The position numbers and the translations under genes are program-made. DNA of 55,954 nucleotides from Carpediemonas membranifera BICM. Lineage: Eukaryota; Protista; Fornicata. The notes under the pieces were generated by a model that saw only the letters and a list, made by a program, of their open reading frames with translations, made no database searches and was not told the DNA's origin. The DNA lies in the NCBI GenBank assembly GCA_019828565.1, contig JAHDYR010000056.1:1-55954 (forward strand). The letters run 5' to 3'. Shown here in pieces: positions 2,793-55,240 of the stretch (position 1 is the first letter of the stretch; each line of letters starts with the position of its first letter).

Positions 2793-3065
2793 ATCGGTTT
2801 CTTCAGAACGAAATTCTAAAGAAATGTTCGGTGGTAAGTGAGATCACTGCGCATCTAGAGACAGCAGAAACGTAACCTACAGCCCATATTGATGTGGGCT
2901 GGTCTTATCCGGATGTCCAAGGACCTTGATTCGCTCTGGGGTAGTCCCCCCATGACCGTCAGGCACGCGAACCGCATCCTGCACGAAGCGGGGATGCAGA
3001 GTCTGAAAAGACCCATCTCTCTGTCCGATCTGGATACCCCTGACGATAGATGGAATGAATGAAGC

Positions 3066-3298
3066 TGTAAACATATCCATTGACTCTGAATCTTTTATTT
3101 CTCCATCTGCGAGTTAAGCCAGGCCACTGCCTTTCCCGTCAAATATACCTTACGTGTGTCGTGCACCTTCTTTGTTGCTCTTGCGGCTGAAGCATCAACA
3201 GTGGCCTGCTTCAACAAATCTCGGCAGCTAGACTTCGGCGTCTTGGTGCCACGCCGCGTGCAGGCCCACTCTCTATCGTCCACGGACCCACCGCACAC
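3066..3298. repeat. Direct duplicate of 1834..2066 (3' end and 3' flank of the HEPN gene)
   Basis: Near-identical ~233 bp at offset 1232; explains the short ORF 3095..3307. Confidence 0.9.
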
Positions 3299-5243: not shown

Positions 5244-5483
5244 ATCAAGATATTATTGTCCAATGAGGCTCTTTACATCGCCTTCTAGCTCGATATTGAT
5301 GTTGTTAGTGATTTTCTAGAGTACAGCACCAGTTTCGGTAATAGGGGGACAGAAGAGCGCAAACAACTACATGGCTCCGAACTACACGCGTCTTGGCGTT
5401 GATATTGGTTATTAAATGCACTGCTGGTAGCATATTGAGGGATTTCGTCACTGTACTCGAATGCACAAGTGTGCAGTTTATGC
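5244..5483. repeat. Internal 240-bp repeat, copy 1
   Basis: Near-identical to 8514..8753; partial inverted copy at 14774..14887. Confidence 0.9.
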
Positions 5484-8513: not shown

Positions 8514-8753
8514 ATCAAGATAATATTGTCCAATGAGGCTCTTTACATCGCCTTCTAGCTCGATATTGATGTTGTTAGTGATTTTCTAGAGTACAGCACC
8601 AGTTTCGGTAATAGGGGGACAGACGAGCGCAAACAACTACATGGCTCCGAACTACACGCGTCTCGGCGTTGATATTGGTTATTAAATGCACTGCTGGTAG
8701 CATATTGAGGGATTTCGTCACTGTACTCGAATGCACAAGTGTGCAGTTTATGC
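8514..8753. repeat. Internal 240-bp repeat, copy 2
   Basis: Matches 5244..5483 at offset 3270; begins right after the stop of 7668..8513. Confidence 0.9.
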
Positions 8754-14570: not shown

Positions 14571-14773
14571 AGAGATTGATACTTTCTGTGATGCAGGAAT
14601 GAGATCAATGCTGCTGACAGGTCTCGAGATGGCAGAGGTGCTGGAGAAGAGAGCGCAGAAAAGGCATCAGAAGTAAATGAACGAGGTAAATTCCAGTTCG
14701 CCGGAGATGATATCCTTCCTCGTACGCGGCATGTGTCTTGGGTCTTAAGTTCGCCATTTTAATCTCGTTGCGA

Positions 14774-14887
14774 GCATAAAATGCACACTTGTGCATTCGA
14801 GTACAGTGACGAAATCCCTCAATATGCTACCAGCAGTGCATTTAATAACCAATATCAACGCCGAGACGCGTGTAGTTCGGAGCCATG
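14774..14887. repeat. Internal repeat, partial inverted copy 3
   Basis: Reverse complement of 8640..8753. The adjoining 14743..14787 also matches 11417..11461. Confidence 0.85.
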
Positions 14888-18865: not shown

Positions 18866-19724
18866 AGATACAATTGAATCTTTTCAAACATATTTTCATG
18901 AAGATAGATCCAATGAAACTATGTACCATGAGCCCGATTGCTCAGTGATTATGTGATAATCCTGTGTGACCCAGGACAGCGTGCTCCTGGAATCAACAGG
19001 GCACAAAACACCCTGCGTATTCCGGTAGCACACCGTTCTGACTCATACGTCCGTCTCTGGTTGTCGTATACAGGTCTATTTACGTGTTTGGCGATGGCGC
19101 TCCCTTAAATCTGCTTGAACGGCGTGTCGTGGCTGTCAGTATGCTGCAAATGTCGCAGCGAGAAAGGAGTCACCAATCGCGTTCAGCTTTCTTGTTTCTC
19201 GCCTGATACTGCTCGTAATATCGTTCAAGCGTGAATCTATGAAGTAATGGGACTGAATGGCCTCTATTGCGTCAATTTCTTGCGTAATCGTTGTTGAATG
19301 GCCTAGAATAGATGTTGCAGCTGCTTCCAGCTCCTGTTGCATGCTAAATGCTGTGTTTTGGACAATTGGTCGTGTTCAGGCAGATTTTTTTCGTGCAAAG
19401 TGCAGGCTAATACGCGCCCTTAAACTGTGGGATCAGCCGCTGGGTAAATATACTGAGAAAAAACCATATAGCTGAGTTCACTGTCTTGTGCTGAATACGG
19501 TGGCGCCATTTATTTCTCTGAATCGCTAAGTTTTGTCAGCGTTGACCGCGCACGACCGGTCGTCCTTACGCGATGACACCCAGCCCATCTTGTAGGTCGG
19601 GTGGCCATACCTCGCGGCCTTGCTTGCTTTTTCTTTGACGAGCAATATTCCCTGAGTAATAGCCTCTCCTTTTCTTCCAATTCGACTCTAGCCAAGTCAA
19701 AAAACAAGAAATCGACCATATCTC

Positions 19725-19828
19725 AAAATCTAACAGGTAGATTCACTCTGAAAGTGATTATGCGCATATGTACCTCCTTTCAACTACTCACATAATCACT
19801 ATCGTAGTGAATCTACCTGTTAGATTTT
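19725..19828. other. Long hairpin/palindrome near the right end of the transposon
   Basis: Perfect 23-bp arms 19725..19747 and 19806..19828, plus inner 10-bp arms 19753..19762 and 19791..19800. Confidence 0.8.
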
Positions 19829-20010
19829 CTGTTATTGTCCATTTTATCGTTTCGTCTTAACCTGCACGGCGAAATGCTCAAACCAGGCAAGGAGTCAGAG
19901 CCAGAGCTTCTTTCCATGCTCTAAGTACATCATATGGACTCTCAAGAAGACCTTCGTTTATCTCTAAATAGCTTAAATTTAATGAATACTTCATTTCTGA
20001 GCAAGAAATT

Positions 20011-20085
20011 GTAGATTATCTAGCGTTTTGAGGTCGAAGATAATCTAGGGTTTAGCAAAGATAATCTAGGGATGTTGACAGCATG
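20011..20085 (-). repeat. Right terminal inverted repeat (75 bp)
   Basis: Reverse complement reads CATGCTGTCAACATCCCTAGATTATCTTTGC...CAAAACGCTAGATAATCTAC; followed by TSD CTT at 20086..20088. Confidence 0.95.
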
Positions 20086-36335: not shown

Positions 36336-36563
36336 TTTCTCTGTCCCTTGTCCCGTCACGGGGCCTTCGAGCCGGCTCCGGTTACCCGTGGCGGGCCAAC
36401 TATGGGTTACCCTGGTGACAATCCTTACCTTCGGGCAGGGATACTTAGGAGGGGGCGCATTGGCGTGACCCCCCCTTTGGCTGCCGCCACAGCCCACCGG
36501 CAGTGCATTTCAGCTAATGCCGGACCCTGAGTGGGAGCCAGGGTTGGATTAAAAGAAAATAAA
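36336..36563 (-). other. Conserved structured segment upstream of non-LTR ORF2, copy A
   Basis: Homologous to 55026..55240(+), with conserved stems and compensatory changes. Confidence 0.7.
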
Positions 36564-36642
36564 TCACAACTATCACTATCTCCATCAAAGGGTACCACTT
36601 TACCCTGCTTAATCGGTCTCCGTTGAGCTGCCACTGTCACTG

Positions 36643-39600
36643 TGTTGGGCAATTTTAGTTATAACCATTTTTGCCCTTGATCGGGTTTCGAATAAACCTC
36701 ACTTCGTCATTAGTTCTCTTTATTTGGCCACAGTAAGCTTACTCACCGCCATGGACTATCAAACGATTTCAGCCCCTTTTCTCAACGACATTCGTTCCGA
36801 AACGGCCTTCTGCAGCTTCAACGACAAGTTCGAGGCCTATTCCGCCCAAGTTCCCGACGACAGAGCACTATCTGTCCGTATGCTCATTTCCAGCCGTGTT
36901 TTACGCCTGATCCGCCTTCGCATTGACAACTTTGACGACCTTCCAGATGAAAACGTCCTGTCGGCGATCTACTCCGCTTTATTCGCTCCCAAGAGCACTC
37001 AGGCCGTTCTGTCTAAGCTGGAAGCAACCGCCATGTCCTCCACGACGGCCAGCAACAGCGCTCTGCTCGCCTACCTCGACAGGTTCGACCGCGTCGAGGA
37101 CCTCTGTTCCACTTACCTCCCCGATGAGAAGACACTACGCCGCACTTTCATCCGCGGACTGTCCCCAGATTCACTGCGCCGCCGGGTCAAGGCCTCCGAA
37201 CCTGAGACGCTCGCCGACGCCAAGCGTGCCGCCTTCCAAGAGGTCGAGACCTTGGCTGAGGCCAAGCGCACCATCGCCGAGTTCGGTCAGCCCGAGGTCC
37301 CGCGCCCTCAGGCCACACGTCCGCCTCCGAGCTTCCACCCCACTCGTCCTCACGCTACCGCAGCGCCTGCTCCCCACTTCCCATCCAACAAACCAGACAA
37401 CCATAAGCCTGCCGGTACCCCTGCCAAGCCGCAGCCTGTCTGCCATGGATGCGGCCTCTCCGGCCACCTTAGGCCTGACTGCCCCAACAAGTCCAAGCCC
37501 GGCTTCTTCGCTACGGGCCGCCGGACGACGCCCATCTCTCTGAAGATGGCAACAAGCGGACCAGTCATGCGCCTCAGCACCAACGTACGAGCCTTCGCGC
37601 CCGTCGGCTCCCCTGCTCCCCAGAGCACCGACCGCGTCGACGCCCTGGTCGACACAGGCGCCTCCTCATCCTTCATCAGCCCAGTGCTGGCCAAGTCTCT
37701 GGGCCTGGTCATGATCCCTGATGAGCTCAAGATAAGCACGGCCAATGGCATCGCCACGTCTGCCCATCGCACGCTCCTTGACATCAAGGTCAACAGGTCT
37801 CCCCCACTCAGTCGGAGGTACTATCAGCGCCCACGTCCTCAACACCGGTGAGCCCCTCATCCTTGGGTTCGACGTGATCCAAACGTTCAACCTACTGGCT
37901 CCTCCCGCGACTGAGCCTCAGGACCTCGGCGAGGTTACACCCCTTGACGAAGATGGCCAGATCGAGCTCGATGAAAACGTCGCAGCCCTCGCTCGCGAGT
38001 TCGAAGACATCTTCGGTCCCATCCCTCGTGAGCCTGCCAAGGTTCAGCCTATGGAGATCGCCGTCACGGACGAAACTCCGACCCACGTTCCCCCTCGCCG
38101 GCTCTCCCCGGCCATGACTGAGGTCATCGATCGAGAGGTCGAGGCCCTCCTTGAGGCTGGCATCATCCGCCTATCGGAGTCGGCTTACTCCGCCCCTTGC
38201 TTCGTCGTGCCAAAGACGAACGGTGAACATAGGATGGTCGTAGACTACCGCCTCCTCAACTCAGTCAGCCGCGACTTCCGATTCCCCCTGCAGAACATTA
38301 AGTCCATCTTGTCTCGCCTGAATGGCAGCAAGTACTTCACCACGCTTGACCTGCGCAGTGGCTACCACCAGTTCCCCCTCGACGCAACAGCTGTTCCTCG
38401 GACTGCATTTGCCACGCACAACGGCCTGTACGAGTTCGTTAGAGTCCCCTTCGGTCTCAAGAACGCGCCTTCCTACTTCCAGCGAGGCATGATGCGGATC
38501 TTAGCTCCACTCTTGGGCCGCGGGGTCGAGTGCTACCTTGATGATGTCATCGTACACGCGTCTACGATCGAGGGCCACAACTCCCTTCTGCATCAGGTCT
38601 TCGAACTCGTCCGCGCCCACAACTTACGCCTGAAGCTGAGCAAGTGCGTCTTCCTCCGCACCGAGCTCGAGTTCGTCGGCCACACGGTCTGCTCACAGGG
38701 CATCAGCATCTCCAGCTGGCGCAAGGAAGCCCTCGGCTCAATGACCGTTCCGTCAAACCCCTCCGAGCTGCGAAGCTTCTGCGGTCTCGCGAACTATTAC
38801 CGTGACCATGTCGCAGATTTCGCCCGTATCATGGCTCCCCTGTACGACCTCTGCGGCTCCAAGACCGTTTTCGAGTGGGGTGAGTCCGAACAGACTGCTT
38901 GGGACACCGTCAAGCGCGCTATCGTCCAGGCACCCCTCCTATCTTTCCCAGACTACTCGAAGCCCCTGGTGATCAAGACCGACGCTTCTTCGCTCGGCTG
39001 TGGCGCTCTCCTCGCGCAGCAAGATCCCGTCTCCGGCAAGGGAGGCACCTGTCGCCTTCGTCTCGCGCCGCTTCACGATGACTGAGTCAGCTTGGGCCAC
39101 GATCGAGCAAGAAGCATATGGAATCTTCTTCGCCATCACCAAGTTCGATCCGTTCATCCGAGGCCAGTTCTTCGAGGTCCAGACCGATCATAAGAACTTG
39201 ATCTACATGTCGCGCAGTGAGACCCCGAAGGTCGTGCGCTGGAGCCTCCGTCTCCAAGAGTATGTCTTCGTGATTCATCACATCCCCGGCCTCGACAACG
39301 CGGCCGCAGATGTCCTCTCTCGCTGTCTCAAGGCTGTCACTTCCCTGTCTGACCATCATGTGGACATTGAGTCCGTGCATGGTCCCGTCGCCGGCCATAT
39401 GGGCGCCGTGACCACCATGGAGCGCCTCAAGCTCCGCGGCATCGAATGGACCAACATGCTGGATGACATCAAGGGCTTTATTGCCTCATGCCCCATCTGT
39501 CAGAAGGTCCGCGAGACAGCCAAGAAGACGACTTCTACCCTGCGTCCTACGTTCTCCTCTGACCCGTTCGTGGCCGTCTCCATCGACACTATGGGTCCCT

Positions 39601-40679
39601 TCCCGGAGGATGACTTTGGTAACAAGTTTATCATCGTCACGGTTGACAACTTCTCACGCTTTACAGAGCTAGTCGCTGTCCCTTCAACTTCCTCCGAGTC
39701 TGCCTGCCGCGCATTCATCCAGTTCGCCGGCCACTACGGATTCCCTCAGACCGTCCGCACTGATGGCGGCTCCCAGTTCACTGCCAAGCTCTTCAAGGAG
39801 ATCTTGGCCTCCCTGCACGTGGCCCACACCGTCACGCTGCCCTACCACCACCGCGCGAACGGCCTAGTCGAGAGGGTCAACCGCGAGGTGAACCGTCATC
39901 TCGTCGCCTTGACCTCTGAACTCAGACTCTCCTCCAAGTGGTCTCTGTACCTGCCCATGGTCCAACGCCTTCTTAACGCTACCACCAACTCTAGCATTGG
40001 CATGTCACCCGCTGCCCTCGTCTTCGGCACCGCCGTCAACCTCGACCGCAGCATCATCGACGTAGTGTCACAGGGAGAGGGAGAGCACCCAGACATCGTC
40101 CAAATCCAGGAGATCCTCGTTCAAGCAGCCCGCCTTAACCAGGATCAGACCTTCAACCCCGGCCCTTCAACCTCGGACGTCTTTGCCATCGGCGACCAGG
40201 TCTTAGTAACCTACCCGACGCGTCCCGACAGCAAGTTGACCCCCAAGCTCATGGGCCCCTACACCATAACTTCCCGCTCGAACGACATTTACGAGGTTAT
40301 CAATCCTGCGACTCGTCGCACCAGACCTATCACGCCACACGCCTCCGCCGCTTCGTCTCCAATGGCCTCCTCACTGACATCGAGCTCGTCGCCATGGACG
40401 AGGACTCCTACCTTGTACAAGAGATCCTGGCCCACCGTGGCGGCCCCAACAAGACCTCCTTCGAGTTTCTCATCCGCTGGGATGGCTATGGTGCCGAGGA
40501 CGACCAATGGCTTCCCTACCTCGAGGTCAGGGACCTCGAGGCTCTCGACTATTATCTCGAGTGTCACCCACTCTTCTAAGAGAGAGAAGTGTTGGGCAAT
40601 TTTAGTTATAACCATTTTTGCCCTTGATCGGGTTTCGAATAAACCTCACTTCGTCATTAGTTCTCTTTATTTGGCCACA
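36643..40679 (+). mobile_element. Ty3/Gypsy chromovirus-type LTR retrotransposon 1 (90-bp LTRs, TSD ACTG)
   Basis: Identical TG...CA LTRs at 36643..36732 and 40590..40679; ACTG at 36639..36642 and 40680..40683; PPT AAGAGAGAGAAG at 40578..40589. Confidence 0.95.
36751..40579 (+). CDS. gag-pol of element 1 (CCHC, protease, RT, RNase H, integrase, chromodomain), three apparent frameshifts
   Basis: CHGCGLSGHLRPDC; LVDTGAS; YLDD; TDAS; H..H..CPIC plus DTMG/TDGG/VERVN; YLVQEILAHR...FLIRWDGYGAEDDQWLP. Frame changes near 37800, 39040 and 40330. Confidence 0.9.
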
Positions 40680-40683
40680 ACTG

Positions 40684-40979
40684 CCATCGTCGCTCTGGTT
40701 CTCGGTTGCCATCCCCTGTTGTTGCTGCATGGTCTTCATCACCGTTGACACGATCTGGGCCACTAGCTCCATCTGGTTTAGCTGTCTCGGCTTGCGAGAC
40801 CTCTTTGTCCGAGTCCTCTTCTTGTGGCGGACTACCCTGTGCTCCTTGCCGGTACCCTGGTTTCCCTGGGTGTCAGCCGGTGCTGGGGTTGGCGTCGCCT
40901 GCTCCTACTCCCTGCTGTCCCTGGCCCTGAGTGCGAGAATCAGCTTCTTGGCTTCATCAAGTTCCTTCCTGAGTTCAGG
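40684..40979 (-). pseudogene. Degraded coiled-coil/basic ORF (possible non-LTR ORF1 end), continuing at 36638..36609 across element 1
   Basis: After removing element 1 and one TSD, it reads ...QQQGMATENQSDDGS|DSGSSTETD* in frame; one internal stop. Confidence 0.45.
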
Positions 40980-41189
40980 CTACTTCCGGCCGCGGACCTC
41001 GACGAGGAGCTCAATGTCAGCCTTGTGATGTGGCACGTCAATGTAACACATGGAGATCGGCTTCTTGAGGCAGGGGGAGAAGAGACCAGAGGTGATCTCC
41101 CCGGCAGGAGCACCGCTGGGGGTGAAGACTGGCGTGTGCTCGCGGGCGGGGCGCCCTTGATGCAGAGACCGACACGGCGGTGGGTGAGG
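40980..41189 (-). pseudogene. Glycine cleavage system T protein (aminomethyltransferase) C-terminal fragment
   Basis: DPKLL (from 45786..45772)|THRRVGLCIKGAP(fs)AREHTPVFTPSGAPAGEITSGLFSPCLKKPISMCYI...LLVEVRGRK*: GcvT C-terminal signature. Confidence 0.75.
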
Positions 41190-44100
41190 TGTGCCGGGGC
41201 GAAGAGATTGGAACATTTACATAAACTGCGGACGTGGATGCCTTATGACATCCTACCCCCCTTAAGCTTGAGCTTGTGGGACTTGAGGTAGTCACGTGCC
41301 GCAGTGACGTGGCGGAGCCCGTCAGCGGGTTCCCATGTGGGATCGTAGTCGCCCTCCCAGCAGACGAGGAGCTGCAGTGTGCCGTTGCGGCGACGGTGCT
41401 TCTCGATGCCTTGCACGACGTACGTCTGCTCGTCGGAGGCGGCGAGGTTCTTCAGGCGGCTGAGCCCCGACTTGGTGTTGAAAGGAAGGACCTGGTCTAC
41501 GTGAGCCATGAAGGGGGCGCTCTCGAAAAGGTCGACCAGCTGAAGGGTGTTGTTGTCCTTGATGGCGAGAATCTTGAACGGGCCGGCGAAGCCATGCAGC
41601 TTTGGGGTCTTCGTCCGGTTGAGCAGGACGAGGTCGCCTTCCTTGAAGCTAGTCGGCTGGCGGTCGGCGTTGGCCTTGGCGAGGCGCTTGTCTACAGTCT
41701 CGCGCTGCTTCTCGGCCGCCCTAGAGGTCAACTTGGAGAGGTGGGCTCGAAGTAAAGTGATGTAGGCTGAGGCTGAGGCAAGGGGCGAGTCATTTTCGCT
41801 CGGTCGGAGGATTCTAGCGACTGTGGAGCTGGGGTCGAGTTGGTCTCCATACAGCATGGCGTGGGGTGTGACCCCAGTGGCGCTGCAGGTGGTTGTGTTC
41901 AGCAGCAGCTGAACTACCGGAAGGAGGTCGCTCCAACGGGAGAACTTGTCGGGTGGAGGATCAAACAGCGAAGATGCTTCATGACCTCCGCGTTACGACG
42001 CTCTACCAGCCCATTCGACTGAGGGTGGTAGGGGAGGGTGAATTGCTGGGTGATGTCCGCGCTTTCGAGCAGGGCCTTGACGACGTTGCCGGTGAACTCA
42101 GGCCCGTTGTCGGACTTGATGAACAGGGGAGTCCCATGACGGGTAATCACCTGGCGCCAGAGGGCCTCTGACGCTGCATCAGCTGTGTTCTCGTCCGTCG
42201 CGGCCAACTCAGTGTAGCGAGTAAACATATCGACCATAACTGTGATGTATCTGGAGCCGACTGCGTCTGCCGGGATTGGACCAATAGTATCCACTGCGAC
42301 AGTGTGGAACGGTTTGTACACTGCTGTTGTGCGGAGCTCTGCCTCGGCGAAGTTGCGTAGGCGAGCTTTCTGGCACTCGTCACATGAGGCGATGAACTCC
42401 TCGACATCTGTTGTGCAGCCTGTCCAGGTATAGCCGTCTGCTCTCAGGCGTTCGATGGTAGCCTTGGCGCCGTGGTGTCCTCTGTGGGCGATCTGTATCA
42501 GCTCCTTTCGGAGGGGTCTGCACACGGTTGAAGTAGGGATGACGACGAGGCCGTCCTTGCGGCGAAGACCGTCGCTGTCTACGGTCAGCTTGGAGACGGT
42601 AGAGTCGTCTGTCTGGTGTTTGATGAGTGTGTCATGGTAGCGGGAGTCAGTCGTGATGGCTGCGACAGTGGGCGAGGTCGAGTGACCGCAGCGGCTCAGC
42701 GCGTCTGCGACTGCGTTCTGTAGGCCGGGAACGTGCTCGACATCGAACTTGTAGTCTGCTAATGTCAGTCTCCACCGGTTGATCTTGTCGTTCTCGGATG
42801 ACTTGGCGATCATGTAAATAAGATTACGGTGGTCGGTCCGTAGGAGGAACCTCTTCAGGCGTAGGAGGGGTGACAGGGTCGGGTGTGTAAGGCAAAAAGA
42901 CAATGGCAAATAGCTCCTGCTCACACGTGGCCCAGCGCGACTGGGTTGACGTGAATGTGTGAGAGAAGTAGGCGAGGACCTGTGTCTTATCGTCCTTTGT
43001 CTGCCATAGTACGCCGCCTGCTCCGATGTTGCTAGCGTCTGTCTCGAGCGTCCAGTCGGCGTCGGCGTCCGGATGTGCGATAAAGAGATCGTCAGTGAAC
43101 AGGGTCTTCAGGCCGTCGAAAGCGGCGTCGTGCTCCGCTGTCCATTCCCACAGACGGTCCTTTTGCAGAAGATCGTTGAGAGGTCTCATGTACTCGTGTC
43201 GTGTATGGGGAACGAATGATGCGAGGTACTGGAACTGTCCGAGGACTACGCGAAGCTCGTGGACGTTGGTGGGTGCAGGTAGATCGCGTAGGGCTTGGGT
43301 CCTGGCTGGGTCGACGTGTACTCCGGCCTGGTCGACCGTAAAGCCGACAATCTTGGCGCTGGTGGTGCCGAAGACTCCCTTCTTGGCGCTGAACTGAACG
43401 CCTGCAGCGTCCGCGCGTGTGAGCAGGTCGCGGAGAATGCGTAGGAAGGAGTCATCGTCACGGGCGTAGATGAATATGTCGTCGATGTAGGGGTTGGCGC
43501 CCTTGTACAACAGTGGGGCGAGCATGCCTTCGATCTCCCGCTGGAAGTGAGAAGGCGCGTTGCAAAGGCCGAACGGCATCCTGAGGAATTCCTCGTAGAC
43601 GCCCGGGGCGGTGAAGGCCGTCTTAGGCACGTCGTCTGGGTGCATGGCCACCTGCCAGTAGCCCGACGTCAGGTCTAGCGTCGCAAAGCGTGTGCAGCCC
43701 GACGCGAGGTTGAGGAGTTCTCGCATGTTGGGGATCGGGTGCCGGTCGGGTACTGTCCAAGAGTTGAGGCGGCCGTAGTCGATACAGAGACGGTAGGCGT
43801 CGCCCTTTGCGACCAGGACGATGGGGCTTGCGTAAGGCCCCTCAGAGGGCTGTGTGATCTCGTCCTGGCGCAGGCGCTCGACGTATGGCAACAGCCACTC
43901 CAGCTTCTTCGGGTGTAGGTTGCGCGGGCGAAGACGGATCGGAGGGGCGTTGTCGTAAAGCGGGATGCGCATAGGGGCAAACGAGCACGGCTGTTTGCTT
44001 ATGACGGGGTCGAATAGGTGATCGAACCGACGGAGGATCGAATGTAGCTCGTCGGTCTGGGCCTTGGTGGAGAGCTCGTGTATCTCACACGCGTCGGTGT

Positions 44101-45771
44101 GAAACTCGCTTGAGGAGACGGCCTCGACGGGGGCGTCGAGGTACTTGTGGAGTGGGAGGCCATCGGTGGCGTCCTCCGGGCGTGAATCCGGAAGAAGTGG
44201 GATGTGGAGGCCACTCTCGGAGAGATAACCGAGCGCGCGAAGCACGTCGCATCCAATGAGCACACGTTCAGTGGCGCGCGTCATGATGTAGAGGATGAGA
44301 TCGACGATGACGTTTCCAGATGTGCTGGGCAACGTGATCCGCGCTTGGACGTAGTGAGTGATGAGGATGGGCTCATTGGTAACGGACTGAACAGTAAATG
44401 GCTTTTCAAGCTCATGTGTGACGAGTTGGAGCGTCTTAACGGAGGTTGTGGAGATGATCGTGATTGCGGAGCCGCTATCGATCAATATCACCTGTTCTTG
44501 GTCATTCACAGCTCCCTTAACTGAGAATGCAGTTGAAGCGGCAACTTCTTCGATAAAGGCATCATCACAAGCATTGTGTGCGACTTCGACTTCGTGGACT
44601 CCTGGACGAGAGTTGATCAGCTTGGATCTGTCCCGGAGCACCATGTTCCCAGCGCGTCTCTCGTCGGGGCGAGGCTGTGGCTGCTGGGATGACTGTTGCT
44701 GCTGCTTCTGAGCAGCTGGTGCCGGCTGTGGCTGAGCCGGTTTGTTGGCCGCTTGGGGCTGGCGTTGCGGCTGAGGTGCCGGTCTGGCGTCGCGGGCCGC
44801 GGCGGGGTGGCCTTTGGTAGCCTGGGGCTGTCCGGGCGTGCTGCCGCGGTGCGGGCAATCAGCCTTCCAGTGCATGCCTCCACAGGAGCACGCGTATGGA
44901 GGAGGGCGCCGGCGCTCGCGGCGGGATCTGGTGTTGGCGTTCTGGCTATGTTTCGGGCCAGTGCTGGAGCTCGTGATGGAGCTCGTGCTGGAGGATGTGA
45001 TGGATATGTCTTGAATCACGCTTCCGAGGACTTCACGGGCGTCAATGGCGTGCAGTATGAGCTCGCGCGTGTGCACAAATAAGCTATCGATGTCCCGGGC
45101 GCCAGAGAGGTCCCACTTTTGCTGAATACGGTTGGCAAGTGAGACCGGGCGAAGGGCGGCGATAAAAGCTTTGGCGATGATCTTATCGAGTCCGCGGGTG
45201 GGGCTGGCTTTTCTCGGGGTGTCCTGCTCACTCGGCGTGCTGTCTGGCTTCTGGGTGATGACCTTGCTGAGGGCGGCCTCGTCTTCATCCACCTCGGCGG
45301 GCTCGGGCTCTGGCTTGGCGCCGAGCTCGGCGTTGAGAAGGGCATGGGCGTGGGAGCGCAGCTCCTCGGTCTCAGCCATGAGACGAGATACGGCCTCGAT
45401 CGTGGACTTGGTTCGGTCCTGCGTGAGGGCCCGGATTTCTTGGATGGTTTTCTCAAGGGTTCTCGGGAAAGAAAGAGCGGTGATTTCGGCGAGAAGTTCT
45501 GCGTCGTTGAGTGCTTCGACGTCGACGTTGCGGACAAATCGGACATGACTGACTTGATCCTCGGTGAGGCACTCGTAAGCCGTTATGACGGTTGTGGTAG
45601 GAGCATGCTTCTGCGCGAACGTGAGGGCGCGTTTGAACGCGCGAACGGACTCTCTAGAGAAGTCCGATAGTGATGGCGGAATCCAATTATTCATTTCGGA
45701 AAGTGATCACTGTGCCGGGGCGAAGAGATTGGAACATTTACATAAACTGCGGACGTGGATGCCTTATGACA
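41190..45771 (-). mobile_element. Ty3/Gypsy chromovirus-type LTR retrotransposon 2 (61-bp LTRs, TSD GAGG)
   Basis: Identical LTRs at 41190..41250 and 45711..45771; GAGG at 41186..41189 and 45772..45775; minus-strand PPT AAGGGGGGTAGGA at 41251..41263. Confidence 0.95.
41243..45694 (-). CDS. gag-pol of element 2 (Zn knuckle, protease, RT, RNase H, integrase, chromodomain), apparent frameshifts near 42880 and 41940
   Basis: CSCGGMHWKADC; LIDSGS; YIDD; TDAS; HRGHHG..CDEC, DTIG/SDNG/VERRN; YVVQGIEKHR...LLVCWEGDYDPTWEP. The stop codon lies inside the 3' LTR. Confidence 0.9.
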
Positions 45772-46130
45772 GAGGAGCTTGGGGTCGTAAATTTTGATGA
45801 CTTCAGAGATTGCTCGGGGAGATTTATCGGGAGATGGTGGAGGGCAGCCGCGCCACAGGGGACCCCAGGTCTCCCCCGGACCTGCGTGTATGCGCGGTGA
45901 CCCAACCCCAAACCTCCTCCCGACATCATCTCAGCAGACCTTCCAGAGGTGTCATCCCCTCTGACCCATGCGCACTGGGCCACCAGCGGTACCGGCCCCA
46001 AACAGGACCGGCGCCACCGTCCGTACTCTCACTCTTCGCAACCCGGTCTTCCCGCGGGACGAGCCTCCAGGCAGGCGACGAGCTTCCACGCTGCAATAAC
46101 TAGCCATGAAACATGAGCGCGGAAGACCGT

Positions 46131-52446: not shown

Positions 52447-53885
52447 GCTACAGCGACTCGTCTCGACGCGTGGTGGTTCGTCTGACTCACCCAGATCGGC
52501 CCCCCGCCGCAAGCCAACACGCGATCGCCTCCTGCCTAGCTGCGCAGCACGCAGACACTGCCCGGTGTCTGCTGTGGGGACAGCCAGAGGGCCTCGTCTC
52601 TGCCTGCAAAACGGCTGGTCGAGCGAGAGTCGCGAAGTGGGGTCGACACCCAAACCGCGAGCTGGATGCAGCCAGACGGCGCGCTCCTGGAATCAGCAGG
52701 GCGCATTACACCCTGCGTATTCCGGTAGCGCGCGGTCCTGCCGCGCCCAGATTGGGTCGACCTCAGATGTCGACACCAGACTCACGCGCCCAATCGCGGG
52801 ACGGTCAGCCATGTTTACTTAGCTCTGTGCAATGAACCCGCGCTGCTGCTGGCTCGGCGCAAGCAGCTCAGACTGGCAGCGCGCAGAGTCGACACCAGTC
52901 ACACTTCTGCTCGCGCGCCTCCCGGGCATCTGTCGCCAGTCGCGTGTGTCGTGCAATACACCTCATTATTGCGTCATATTGTACAAGTGAACTGGCTATA
53001 GCGACTCGTCTCGACGCGTGGTGGTTCGTCTGACTCACCCAGATCGGCCCCGCCGCAAGCCAACACGCGATCGCCTCCTGCCTAGCTGCGCAGCCCACAG
53101 ACACTGCCCGGTGTCTGCTGTGGGGACAGCCAGAGGGCCTCGTCTCTGCCTGCAAACGGCTGGTCGAGCGAGAGTCGCGAAGTGGGGTCGACACCCAAAC
53201 CGCGAGCTGGATGCAGCCAGACGACGCGCTCCTGGAATCAGCAGGGCGCATTACACCCTGCGTATTCCGGTAGCGCGCGGTCCTGCCGCGCCCAGATGGG
53301 GTCGACCTCAGATGTCGACACCAGACTCACGCGTCCAATCGCGGGACGGTCAGCCATGTTTACTTAGCTCTGTGCAATGAACCCGCGCTGCTGCTGGCTC
53401 GGCGCAAGCAGCTCAGACTGGCAGCGCGCAGAGTCGACACCAGTCACACTTCTGTTCGCGCGCCTCCCGGGCATCTGTCGCCAGTCGCGTGTGTCGTGCA
53501 ATACACCTCATTATTGCGTCATATTGTACAAGTGAACTGGCTATAGCGACTCGTCTCGACGCGTGGTGGTTCGTCTGACTCACCCAGATCGGCCCCCCGC
53601 CGCAAGCCAACACGCGATCGCCTCCTGCCTAGCTGCGCAGCACGCAGACACTGCCCGGTGTCTGCTGTGGGGACAGCCAGAGGGCCTCGTCTCTGCCTGC
53701 AAAACGGCTGGTCGAGCGAGAGTCGCGAAGTGGGGTCGACACCCAAACCGCGAGCTGGATGCAGCCAGACGGCGCGCTCCTGGAATCAGCAGGGCGCATT
53801 ACACCCTGCGTATTCCGGTAGCGCGCGGTCCTGCCGCGCCCAGATTGGGTCGACCTCAGATGTCGACACCAGACTCACGCGCCCA
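52447..53885. repeat. GC-rich tandem repeat, ~546-bp unit, ~2.6 copies
   Basis: AGCGACTCGTCTCGACGCGTGG recurs at 52452, 53000 and 53545; copies are nearly identical and differ mainly in homopolymer lengths. Confidence 0.95.
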
Positions 53886-55025
53886 GTCCGCCATCGAATT
53901 CAGCTAAGTCGAAAGACTATGTTCGGGGATGGATAAAAGGCCAACGGCCTGTCCCAGTAAACTGGTACAGCGCCCCCATCAGCTCAGAAGGAGCGGCCTC
54001 AGCTTCCTGTCCGCCAAACTCAAAGGTGCATTCATGGATCTCCGCCGGGCGCGAGTGGGAGCTCCACGCCCAACACAGAGACACTATAAGAGGATAATGA
54101 ACAGAGATTTAACAGAGAAAGCAGGGAAACCCACAGAGAACACCGAGAAGCCGCGACCACTTTTGGTTTTTGGCATGTTCACGGTGAAGGAGGAGTGATC
54201 AAGCAGAGGCACAGAGACCAAAGATAGCCCTCATGTAGGCACTACCTGGAGTGAAGTCAGTCCTAAAATCCCGAGACCACCCAGCGAGAAAATCAGCGTG
54301 CATTTTTGGACAGTGCGCCATTTCGCCGTAACGCAGTTTACGGCCGAACCAGAGAAAAGAAGAAAACTGAGACCCCTACACAGTTGCAGGAGCCGCACAA
54401 GGCCACGCTGACCGATTTTCAGGACGATACATTAGCCAACTTTTTTTCATGCAGGCAACGAAGAATCGCAGCAAAAGTATCAGAGAATTACAGAGAAACA
54501 AACAGTGACCGCAGATAACGAACATATTTATAGTAAGCAACCATATGACCAACATAGACCATCCGGGAAGCTTTCAGAGACAGTGCATCGACGAACATCC
54601 TGAGACCAAATGCAGATATGCCTCAAAGGTATGCAGAGACCAAAGCAAACAGCAACATACAAATACTAACAGCACCTCCAGCAGATTCAGCAGCGTGCAT
54701 GGACCACAGCGGCCACACTAGACCGACAGTTTTGCCTTTCAGAGGCTGAGACCAGACAACAACAGCACATCAAGAGCAGAGACCGAGCAGAGATCAGAGA
54801 ATACCAGGGGCAGGTGAGGGTGGCCGGGCAGTCCACGGATGAGAAGGCCCCCCCCTGCCGCCGCCGAGACACCCCAGTCAGTAGGCGGTACCTGGGGCAG
54901 TGGCATGACAGTAGCGACGAACGTGGAATGGCCATCGAGCAGGTTGCTCTCTCAAGTCTCGCAGTAAACGCAAGACTGGAACAGGAGGGAGTAAAGTAAC
55001 GTATTGCAGAGTTTCAGAGACAGTC

Positions 55026-55240
55026 TTTATTTTTCTTTTAACAAGCCCTGGCTCCCACCCAGGGCCTGGCATTAGCCTACGGGCACTGCCAGTGGGCTGT
55101 GGCGGCAGCCAAAGGGGGGGTCACTCCTAAGTATCCATGCCTGAGGGCGAATCGGTCACCAAGAAGCACGGAGGCTGGCCCGCCAAGGGTTACCAAGACC
55201 GGCATCGAGGCCCCTTGACGGGACAGTGACACAGTGAACA
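55026..55240 (+). other. Conserved structured segment upstream of non-LTR ORF2, copy B
   Basis: Homologous to the reverse complement of 36336..36563. Confidence 0.7.

Follow-up and report, generated by a model that had tools for sequence, protein, structure and literature searches.

A self-complementary site at the primer-binding position in a protist clade of chromodomain Ty3/gypsy retrotransposons: a candidate for priming between two genomes

In two Ty3/gypsy retrotransposons of Carpediemonas membranifera, and in nearly all readable members of their clade, the primer-binding position directly after the 5′ LTR is occupied by a perfect palindrome that varies widely from copy to copy while remaining symmetric. 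The reading that we favour, with moderate confidence, is that the palindrome likely pairs two element RNAs and that one of them, likely after cleavage where the duplex stops, would act as primer on the other. Both elements lie in a window of 55,954 nt, which is the whole stretch of DNA that was analysed.

Two elements of one clade

Elements 1 and 2 are chromodomain-bearing Ty3/gypsy retrotransposons. Protease, reverse transcriptase (RT), RNase H and integrase with a chromodomain were found in both of them with Pfam, the domain order is that of Ty3/gypsy (gag-PR-RT-RH-INT), and RNase H catalytic motifs are seen in each. Both have TG...CA LTRs, a TSD and a polypurine tract (PPT), and the closest solved structure is the Ty3 RT (E 1e-78). 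The identical LTR pairs of 90 and 61 bp, the 4-bp TSDs and the PPTs described in the original prediction were confirmed by coordinates and sequence, as listed below.

Element 1, layout on the + strand
36639..36642, +: left TSD, ACTG (copy at 40680-40683)
36643..36732, +: 5′ LTR, 90 bp, TG...CA (identical to 40590-40679)
36732..36743, +: palindrome AGTAAGCTTACT from the LTR's last A, at the primer-binding position
36751..37851, +: gag (capsid-like, CCHC knuckle) and start of the protease
37745..39085, +: remaining protease, reverse transcriptase and first half of RNase H, in a new frame
39027..40319, +: second half of RNase H and integrase, in a new frame
40328..40579, +: integrase C-terminus with chromodomain, in a new frame (PF00385, E 1.3e-5)
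40578..40589, +: polypurine tract AAGAGAGAGAAG
40590..40679, +: 3′ LTR, 90 bp (identical to the 5′ LTR)
40680..40683, +: right TSD, ACTG

Element 2, layout on the - strand
41186..41189, -: TSD on the 3′ side, GAGG as read on the + strand
41190..41250, -: 3′ LTR, 61 bp (identical to the 5′ LTR)
41251..41263, -: polypurine tract AAGGGGGGTAGGA
41243..41950, -: integrase C-terminus with chromodomain (PF00385, E 0.002)
41953..42903, -: second half of RNase H and integrase core
42824..45694, -: frame of gag, protease, RT and RNase H, 956 aa
45702..45711, -: palindrome AGTGATCACT from the LTR's last A, at the primer-binding position
45711..45771, -: 5′ LTR, 61 bp (identical to 41190-41250)
45772..45775, -: TSD on the 5′ side, GAGG as read on the + strand

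Each element is interrupted by three frameshifts (six in all), which were absent from the original prediction. The element 1 chromodomain scores 25.5 bits, above the Pfam cut-off of 25.1, and that of element 2 scores 18.4 bits (E 0.002), under the cut-off; the chromodomain region was also aligned in relatives. The stop codon of the element 1 chromodomain frame (40328..40579) overlaps the PPT, and the corresponding frame of element 2 continues across the PPT into the 3′ LTR.

In RT trees built without named reference chromoviruses (Tf1/sushi, plant clades), both elements fall into a clade that separates from 21 control loci with a support of 94 and, with a support of 88, from a set of 14 named proteins of animals and plants. 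Few hosts of the clade can be named; they include a jakobid (P0365) besides Carpediemonas. L003, L005 and L032 each have a single open frame. The relatives were found by exhaustive search; word-based protein searches gave mostly distant gypsy proteins, and a protein search confined to 2859-5000 residues gave nothing useful on the clade. Scans of viral contigs returned no locus with a single RT query and one locus with a two-sequence alignment. Judged from these trees, the elements, initially presented as two divergent cases, share a clade and are thus not of independent origin; because both belong to one clade, their common layout is probably inherited and not convergent. The ultra-short LTRs, which had been taken as part of this layout, are incidental: LTRs in the clade measure 57-390 bp.

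The site after the 5′ LTR

As had been claimed, a TGG-type PBS is missing after both 5′ LTRs, and a perfect palindrome starts instead at the last A of each LTR (36732-36743 and 45702-45711). The gag ATG does lie less than 20 bp from the LTR, 18 nt past it in element 1 (position 36751) and 16 nt past it in element 2 (position 45694). The window contains 62 maximal palindromes of at least 10 nt, about 1.1e-3 per position. The chance that both elements carry one at the same set position is therefore about 1e-6, uncorrected for post-hoc choice.

Complementarity between the site and the LTR, which the original prediction had named as a check, was not found: neither LTR of either element contains a Watson-Crick complement of the primer site of 6 nt or more, and the sole perfect complement of the palindrome site in either element is the palindrome site itself. 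A polypyrimidine stretch of the Skipper type is likewise absent after the 5′ LTR of both elements. No tRNA genes were found in the window or in 31 loci, and Rfam gave no matches in the window. At the RNA level, the predicted dimer reaches -15.5 kcal/mol for the palindrome of element 1 and -13.6 kcal/mol for that of element 2, with an isolated hairpin at 0 in both.

Survey of the clade

Palindromes are present in related families too, in agreement with the original prediction. A perfect palindrome of 10-14 nt from the LTR's last A was found at 67 of the 73 readable 5′ ends, window elements included. Of the 69 related loci scored, 60 had their LTR end placed by means of the palindrome, which leaves nine loci and the two window elements as independent anchors. 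In all nine relatives with both LTR ends (L003, L005, L019, L026, L028, L032, L033, L042 and L053), the palindrome stands at the end of the repeat, a position fixed independently by the second LTR. Among 71 rows, 64 carry a perfect palindrome of at least 10 nt from the last A, or 65 once L043 is shifted by one base, against 3.6 expected from shuffles, and two additional loci both have one. The remaining ends comprise five palindromes that start one base later (a 12-mer from +1) and one copy with a single mismatch (L029); in two families (L013 and L077-L080) there is no pair at the LTR's last A. The surveyed loci were picked by clade-specific motifs and include many near-copies; the rows used for the boundary and U5 tests have 45 different LTR ends.

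The readable 5′ ends hold 42 different palindrome sequences. One of them is common to the distant loci L003 and L032 and another to element 2, L017 and L033, and strictly family-exclusive pairing codes were rejected on these grounds. The boundary of the site is sharp, since the base able to extend pairing beyond the A is G in just 7 of 45 rows. TGG occurs within 5 nt of the LTR in 1 of 71 rows, there inside the palindrome, and no conserved motif follows the palindrome in the surveyed rows. Two further readings, a splice donor (CA/GTRA) and a tRNA-Val half as primer (both window sites begin with GT), were rejected on the variation at +1, where 15 of the 35 distinct 12-mers have A and 3 have T.

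The out-of-clade control was a loose one, made up of 24 loci with both LTR ends defined in none. In five of these loci gag is preceded by a TGG site (L089, L091, L093, L094 and L098), and two have a Tf1-like complement by the test applied to the clade (10 nt in L096 and 9 nt in L104), the latter type sitting on a different branch of the tree from the clade. Chance CA-anchored palindromes were found in the non-coding parts of 6 of the 24.

Covariation within one family

In one family the LTR end is invariant and the palindrome changes solely in matched pairs, the centre included. Here 54 of 54 cells pair and five of the six pairs, both innermost pairs among them, have changed on both sides; the covariation score was reached by 0 of 500 shuffles. 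Divergence per site is 0.00 over the terminal 18 nt of the LTR, 0.48 in the palindrome core and 0.13 in the element body, and seven different palindromes follow one near-identical LTR end. The central bases of the palindrome are complementary in every case, which a hairpin loop would not require. From the comparison of copies, the conserved feature is symmetry and not sequence. Because the LTR end is fixed while the palindrome covaries, priming by a tRNA, a tRNA half or a Tf1-type primer is disfavoured, and the pattern fits two paired RNAs better than a hairpin.

Proposed mechanism and alternatives

In retroviruses, the right end of the LTR is defined by the primer site. According to the two-RNA reading, two co-packaged RNAs would form an antiparallel duplex of 10-12 bp ending at the LTR's last A, and one strand would then be cut at the duplex end or one base before it, most plausibly by the RNase H of the element, as in Tf1; Levin reportedly found in 1996 that Tf1 priming needs an RNA duplex cut by RNase H. 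The new 3′ end would be extended over the U5-R of the partner to produce minus-strand strong-stop DNA. Plus-strand strong-stop synthesis would subsequently copy part of the RNA primer, so that a change in the 3′ half would be mirrored into the 5′ half and the site would stay symmetric. We infer the cleavage and priming steps from sequence. RNAs in Ty1 and Ty3 particles are dimeric (PMC4974528). Of the different priming mode originally proposed, a site of neither tRNA nor Tf1 type is retained, with two-genome pairing as its best mechanism. It is an even call whether palindrome-paired genomes, one cut to prime the other, would amount to a fourth LTR priming route that ties dimerisation to initiation, in which primer copying re-symmetrises a freely drifting family code, and which would also explain the GalEa site discussed below.

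A snap-back in cis, whereby an RNA cut or ended after the palindrome folds its 3′ end as a small hairpin and primes its own U5, seems unlikely. Its first product would be identical to that of the two-genome model, and the leaders of both window elements fold with the palindrome at a hairpin tip (z of -0.57 and 0.44, not significant). Of 45 rows, 8 show stronger pairing between U5 and leader than shuffled sequences do (q<=0.05, where about 2 would be expected), which suggests at best a weak tendency towards a general stem. However, the stems would have just 3-4 bp, the predicted energies across the survey are 0 to -1.8 kcal/mol for the hairpin while dimers range from -6.2 to -19.3 kcal/mol (AU-only sites giving weak predicted dimers of -6 to -7 kcal/mol), and stems in the flanks are no general feature (mean z -0.39). 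In addition, no scored site other than L029 is odd-length or has a non-complementary loop, and the innermost pairs covary. If plus-strand copying makes the site symmetric again in every cycle, its centre could become complementary even though pairing does not require it, which weakens this case against the hairpin.

It is distinctly unlikely that the primer is DNA or that copying creates the symmetry as a side effect, for instance if plus-strand strong-stop DNA carrying the palindrome primed fresh RNA or if another initiation route rewrote the site symmetrically in each cycle. The palindromic tail of strong-stop DNA would complement the site, as follows from its sequence, and rapid paired change fits mechanical mirroring; yet a DNA primer does not account for how a new particle starts its first round, and it would leave a covalent DNA inverted repeat requiring resolution, and neither version has direct support.

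Similarly improbable, and slightly more so, is that the palindrome serves merely as a dimerisation or packaging signal, or as a DNA dyad for a dimeric protein, while some host RNA primes nearby. Palindromes have been proposed to mediate Ty1 dimers (PMC4974528), the MMTV PBS has overlapping palindromes that are dispensable for dimerisation (PMC8096270), and leaders of 16-18 nt offer scant room for separate signals. Against this, the palindrome fills the sole position open to a primer, neither TGG nor a conserved motif follows it, and 42 sequences, seven of them behind one near-identical LTR end, would be hard for a protein or host RNA to recognise.

Finally, ordinary priming with coincidental palindromes, by any of the primer types listed in PMC6317226, is hardly credible and appears largely refuted already by the absence of TGG at the site, by LTR complements of <6 nt in the window elements and at most 8 nt in the 69 related rows (10 and 9 nt in L096 and L104), and by 42 perfect palindromes with covariation, so many different sequences making complementarity to host tRNAs very unlikely.

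Comparison with known systems

The primers listed for LTR retrotransposons are the tRNA 3′ end, the tRNA half and the Tf1-type self-primer (PMC6317226), and a broad protist gypsy clade that very likely matches none of the three would probably be missed or misfiled by PBS-based annotation tools. A host-independent primer would also help to explain the persistence of such elements in distant hosts. The literature searched, which leaves out Repbase and most subscription journals, did not yield any description of gypsy elements with a palindromic PBS, and the Helenus paper does not mention palindromes.

Tf1/sushi elements are also chromodomain Ty3/gypsy elements that use no tRNA and are primed by their own RNA after a cut, as is proposed here (PMC4600332; bioRxiv 10.1101/2022.12.06.519325). 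In contrast, the Tf1 primer is the 5′ end of the transcript, paired in cis within a three-duplex structure (same sources), and the LTRs of the clade lack the complement of about 10 nt or more that the Tf1 type needs, its site being self-complementary. The dictyostelid Skipper is likewise a protist chromodomain gypsy element with neither a tRNA PBS nor an LTR complement, its priming being left unexplained in PMC5006619; compared by its description, it differs in having a polypyrimidine stretch instead of a palindrome. Ty1 PAL (PMC4974528) and the retroviral DIS (per PMC5445492) resemble the clade site as self-complementary RNA that pairs two genomes, but they sit beside a normal tRNA PBS, whereas the clade palindrome occupies the PBS position itself and no tRNA site accompanies it.

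The printed precedent for the feature is found in copia elements. In GalEa, a fungal Ty1/copia group, the Conserved Hairpin Site CHSeq1 is described as a palindrome directly after the 5′ LTR in elements with no PBS, and it has been proposed as a PBS replacement, with the mechanism left unexplained (Donnart et al. 2017, PMC5445492). As in the window elements, the GalEa palindrome takes in the final A of the LTR, and its site, A + CTGATCAGT, is two paired changes away from the palindrome of element 2. GalEa differs in being copia, with an order (INT before RT) absent from the gypsy elements of the window, and in having essentially two sequences (85% of families) versus 42 in this clade. In GalEa a partner sequence, CHSeq2, lies downstream in all but 5 of 44 families, and its authors read the pair as a hairpin (PMC5445492); in the window elements no CHSeq2-like partner was found, the best matches within 90 nt being 5 and 6 of 9. 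The natural covariation series of the clade reveals a conserved symmetry that the nearly invariant GalEa site could not, and it makes the question of GalEa priming simply testable. If the two-RNA reading is true, the same mechanism would explain the GalEa copia site, which would imply multiple origins or crossing between superfamilies.

Structure of the Two Elements

The two chromodomain Ty3/gypsy retrotransposons of the window have the architecture first ascribed to them, with identical LTRs, 4-bp TSDs, PPTs (AAGAGAGAGAAG in element 1 and AAGGGGGGTAGGA in element 2) and a palindrome that occupies the usual place of the tRNA primer-binding site (PBS):

36643-40679, + strand, element 1: identical 90-bp LTR pair, TSD ACTG
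41190-45771, - strand, element 2: identical 61-bp LTR pair, 4-bp TSD

The palindromes, AGTAAGCTTACT in element 1 and AGTGATCACT in element 2, both begin at the last A of the 5' LTR, and the gag ATG follows 7 nt past each of them. Maximal palindromes of at least 10 nt number 62 in the window, i.e., 1.1 × 10⁻³ per position. The proteins of both elements are those of ordinary chromodomain gypsy elements, with the domain order gag-PR-RT-RH-INT-chromodomain. Their RTs are 34% identical to each other, and an exhaustive profile search found true relatives in P0304 (60%) and P0310 (56%) for element 1, and in P0276 (65%) and P0314 (58%) for element 2; others, which include a protein of the jakobid Andalucia godoyi, stand at 43-47% RT identity.

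Each element carries three frameshifts (36751-40579; 41243-45694) despite the identity of its LTRs, either through misassembly of repeats or through damage particular to these copies. A Carpediemonas membranifera protein, P0024, is 98-100% identical to the RNase H-integrase of element 1 and shifts frame at different places, which makes this protist very likely the host and points to one or more additional copies of the family. At the frameshift places of element 1, P0024 keeps the frame in one case and loses it in another; the relatives are single-frame. Both elements display extreme compaction at their 3' ends, as the stop codon of element 1 overlaps the PPT (40577-40589) and the last frame of element 2 continues through the PPT to end within the 3' LTR (41243-41263). 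Judging by their C-termini, P0276 and P0314 may be similarly compact.

The elements lie tail to tail, 510 bp apart (40680-41189), and the related loci L003, L005, L032 and L052 also adjoin other elements of their clade; guidance of this clustering by the chromodomain is possible. Elsewhere in the window, a 240-bp direct repeat (99%; 5244-5483 / 8514-8753) surrounds three frames without Pfam matches, and a 115-bp inverted partial copy of it lies 6 kb off (14773-14887). Further repeats comprise a 545-548-bp unit repeated in tandem about three times (52447-54001), a 66-nt piece of which recurs at 18975-19040, a 236-bp direct pair (1831-2066 / 3063-3298), a 75-bp inverted pair (920-994 / 20011-20085), a hairpin with 54-bp arms (19709-19844), and a 75% identical inverted pair (36339-36563 / 55026-55234), one arm of which is directly upstream of element 1.

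Tests of Known Primer Types

No TGG follows the LTR of element 1 or element 2, in agreement with the original prediction that a TGG-type PBS is absent. Complementarity to the R region had been named there as a refutation; neither LTR holds a Watson-Crick complement of at least 6 nt to the 22 nt past the LTR, and the best with G-U pairs allowed is 6 nt. Across each whole element, the longest complement of the site is the site itself. The like test on gypsy loci outside the clade yielded complements of 10 nt in L096 (L096:125) and 9 nt in L104 (L104:205), and is thus able to detect Tf1-type sites. The complements of post-LTR sequence in these two loci lie upstream, making both candidates for Tf1-type self-priming. 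No tRNA genes were found in the window or in the 31 related loci scanned, and Rfam gave no match in the window. Tested for tRNA-end priming and for priming of the Tf1 type, both elements come out negative.

Palindromes across the Clade

An alignment of the relatives was used to fetch 87 related loci (L002-L088), of which 69 were scored. Fifteen were left out because inspection by eye showed no 5' LTR end upstream of gag on their contigs (L007, L010, L034, L036, L038, L041, L047, L048, L051, L054, L069, L076, L083, L084 and L085), together with three weak matches, L086 and L087 being outside the clade in both trees and L088 too short to place. Among the loci left out, L086 has a CA-anchored 10-nt palindrome 139 nt upstream of an ATG, with an undefined LTR; L036 (1-120) is a clade element cut off in gag by TAACCC telomeric repeats; and L007 (about 1575-1655) harbors a solo LTR that resembles the L052 family and has a 4-bp duplication on either side, within the RT gene of another element.

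A first tally took in 69 sites from 67 loci together with those of the two window elements; of these 71, 64 have a perfect even palindrome of at least 10 nt from the LTR's last A, where 3.6 would be expected by chance for any CA-anchored palindrome (dinucleotide shuffles of 400-nt regions). One more site, L043, is perfect once its LTR end, TA and not CA, is correctly placed; in five rows, which belong to two families (L013; L077-L080), a perfect 12-mer starts instead at +1, the first base past that A; and L029, of the same family as L020, is the sole imperfect site scored, with one mismatch in the 3' half. With two further perfect sites in L035 and L039, 67 of 73 readable 5' ends are perfect from the LTR's last A, in a locus set to which one search, with 382 confirmed stretches, contributed its best 80; as to whether related families lack palindromes, the answer is that they largely carry them. 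Read from that A, the perfect palindromes represent 42 distinct sequences.

Since the LTR end of most loci was located via the palindrome itself, the independent test is provided by loci with both LTR ends, and all nine (L003, L005, L019, L026, L028, L032, L033, L042 and L053) support the placement, with the LTR repeat ending 0-2 nt beyond the A. Across 45 rows with distinct LTR ends, the palindrome measures 12 nt in 35, 10 nt in nine and 14 nt in one, and G comes next in seven, which is chance level. The palindrome is a real, clade-wide feature. LTRs in the clade extend from about 57 to 390 bp, so the short LTRs that the original prediction had coupled to the palindrome are independent of it.

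FastTree analysis of RH-INT with 14 outgroup proteins placed all palindrome loci and both window elements on one side (branch support 99), and an RT tree with 21 control loci, 16 near-copy loci being left out, gave the same split (support 94); this split is partly by construction, as clade motifs guided the choice of loci. Both trees are unrooted and contain no named reference elements. Among the control loci, none with both LTR ends defined, TGG sites or Tf1-like complements occur instead. A fair reading of these trees is that one clade probably inherited one trait, rather than two independent origins.

A Proposed Primer from a Second Genome

In retroviral replication, the primer anneals directly behind the LTR and thereby sets the LTR's end. 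For a palindrome at this position, the complement is the element's own RNA. We consider priming between two genomes the most likely mode of both elements, at somewhat better than even confidence: a second copy of the element RNA would pair at the palindrome in trans. Two observations favour this route over snap-back of the same RNA in cis: self-complementarity of the palindrome extends without exception through its centre, which covaries, and the predicted energies mark isolated hairpins as unstable (0 to -1.8 kcal/mol) and dimers as stable (-6.2 to -19.3 kcal/mol).

The covariation was followed in ten leaders of one family, which bear seven palindromes after a near-identical LTR end. Pairing is kept in all 54 cells, with both-side changes in 5/6 pairs, the two innermost included. 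The covariation score is 0.78, versus 0.18 in shuffles, which ignore relatedness, and at most 0.17 with slid partners, a control that keeps it. Differences per site among seven members of the family are 0.00 in the last 18 LTR bases, 0.13 in the element body and 0.48 in the palindrome core, where every change counts twice. What is conserved is the symmetry of the palindrome, not its sequence. In the L057 family, a 14-nt hairpin-like motif is conserved 8-9 nt past the variable palindrome (e.g., L057:3265-3278) and is possibly that family's cleavage or packaging signal.

Under trans priming, an RNA 3' end would be made at the duplex end, most plausibly, on the model of Tf1, by RNase H, whose motifs are present. 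If the primer ends in the U opposite the LTR's last A, this U would later template the A in the integrase's CA and so account for the retention of the pair at that position; families starting at +1 (L013; L077-L080) presumably represent a second register. Plus-strand strong-stop DNA would copy part of the primer, mirroring changes across the centre, which would explain the fast paired drift. The same mirroring weakens the case against cis, to which we accordingly leave a small share of probability. From the original prediction, a primer site of neither the tRNA-end nor the Tf1 type is upheld, and the pairing of two genomes is the favoured mechanism; like the subsequent cleavage and priming, it is inferred.

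Relation to Known Systems

The literature covered, with most subscription journals outside it, contains no report of such a palindromic site for gypsy elements, nor of one genome priming another, and neither window palindrome occurs in the six supplementary files of PMC5445492. No palindrome figures in the available part of PMC10886601, and priming in Skipper is reported as unexplained (PMC5006619). Other papers describe Tf1-type priming (PMC4600332; bioRxiv 10.1101/2022.12.06.519325) and palindromes in dimerisation (PMC4974528; PMC8096270). The palindromic site does have a printed precedent, without a mechanism, in the fungal GalEa elements. The GalEa palindrome takes in the LTR's final A, its downstream hairpin partner is missing in 5/44 families, and the authors suspect that it replaces the PBS and state that no model fits (PMC5445492); that study is cited for bivalve TRIMs (PMC6934838). 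Inclusion of the final A is common to GalEa and the window elements, but GalEa is copia, whereas the latter are gypsy. Three primer types are listed for LTR retrotransposons in PMC6317226 (tRNA 3' end, tRNA half and Tf1-type self-primer); two-genome priming, if shown, would constitute a fourth.
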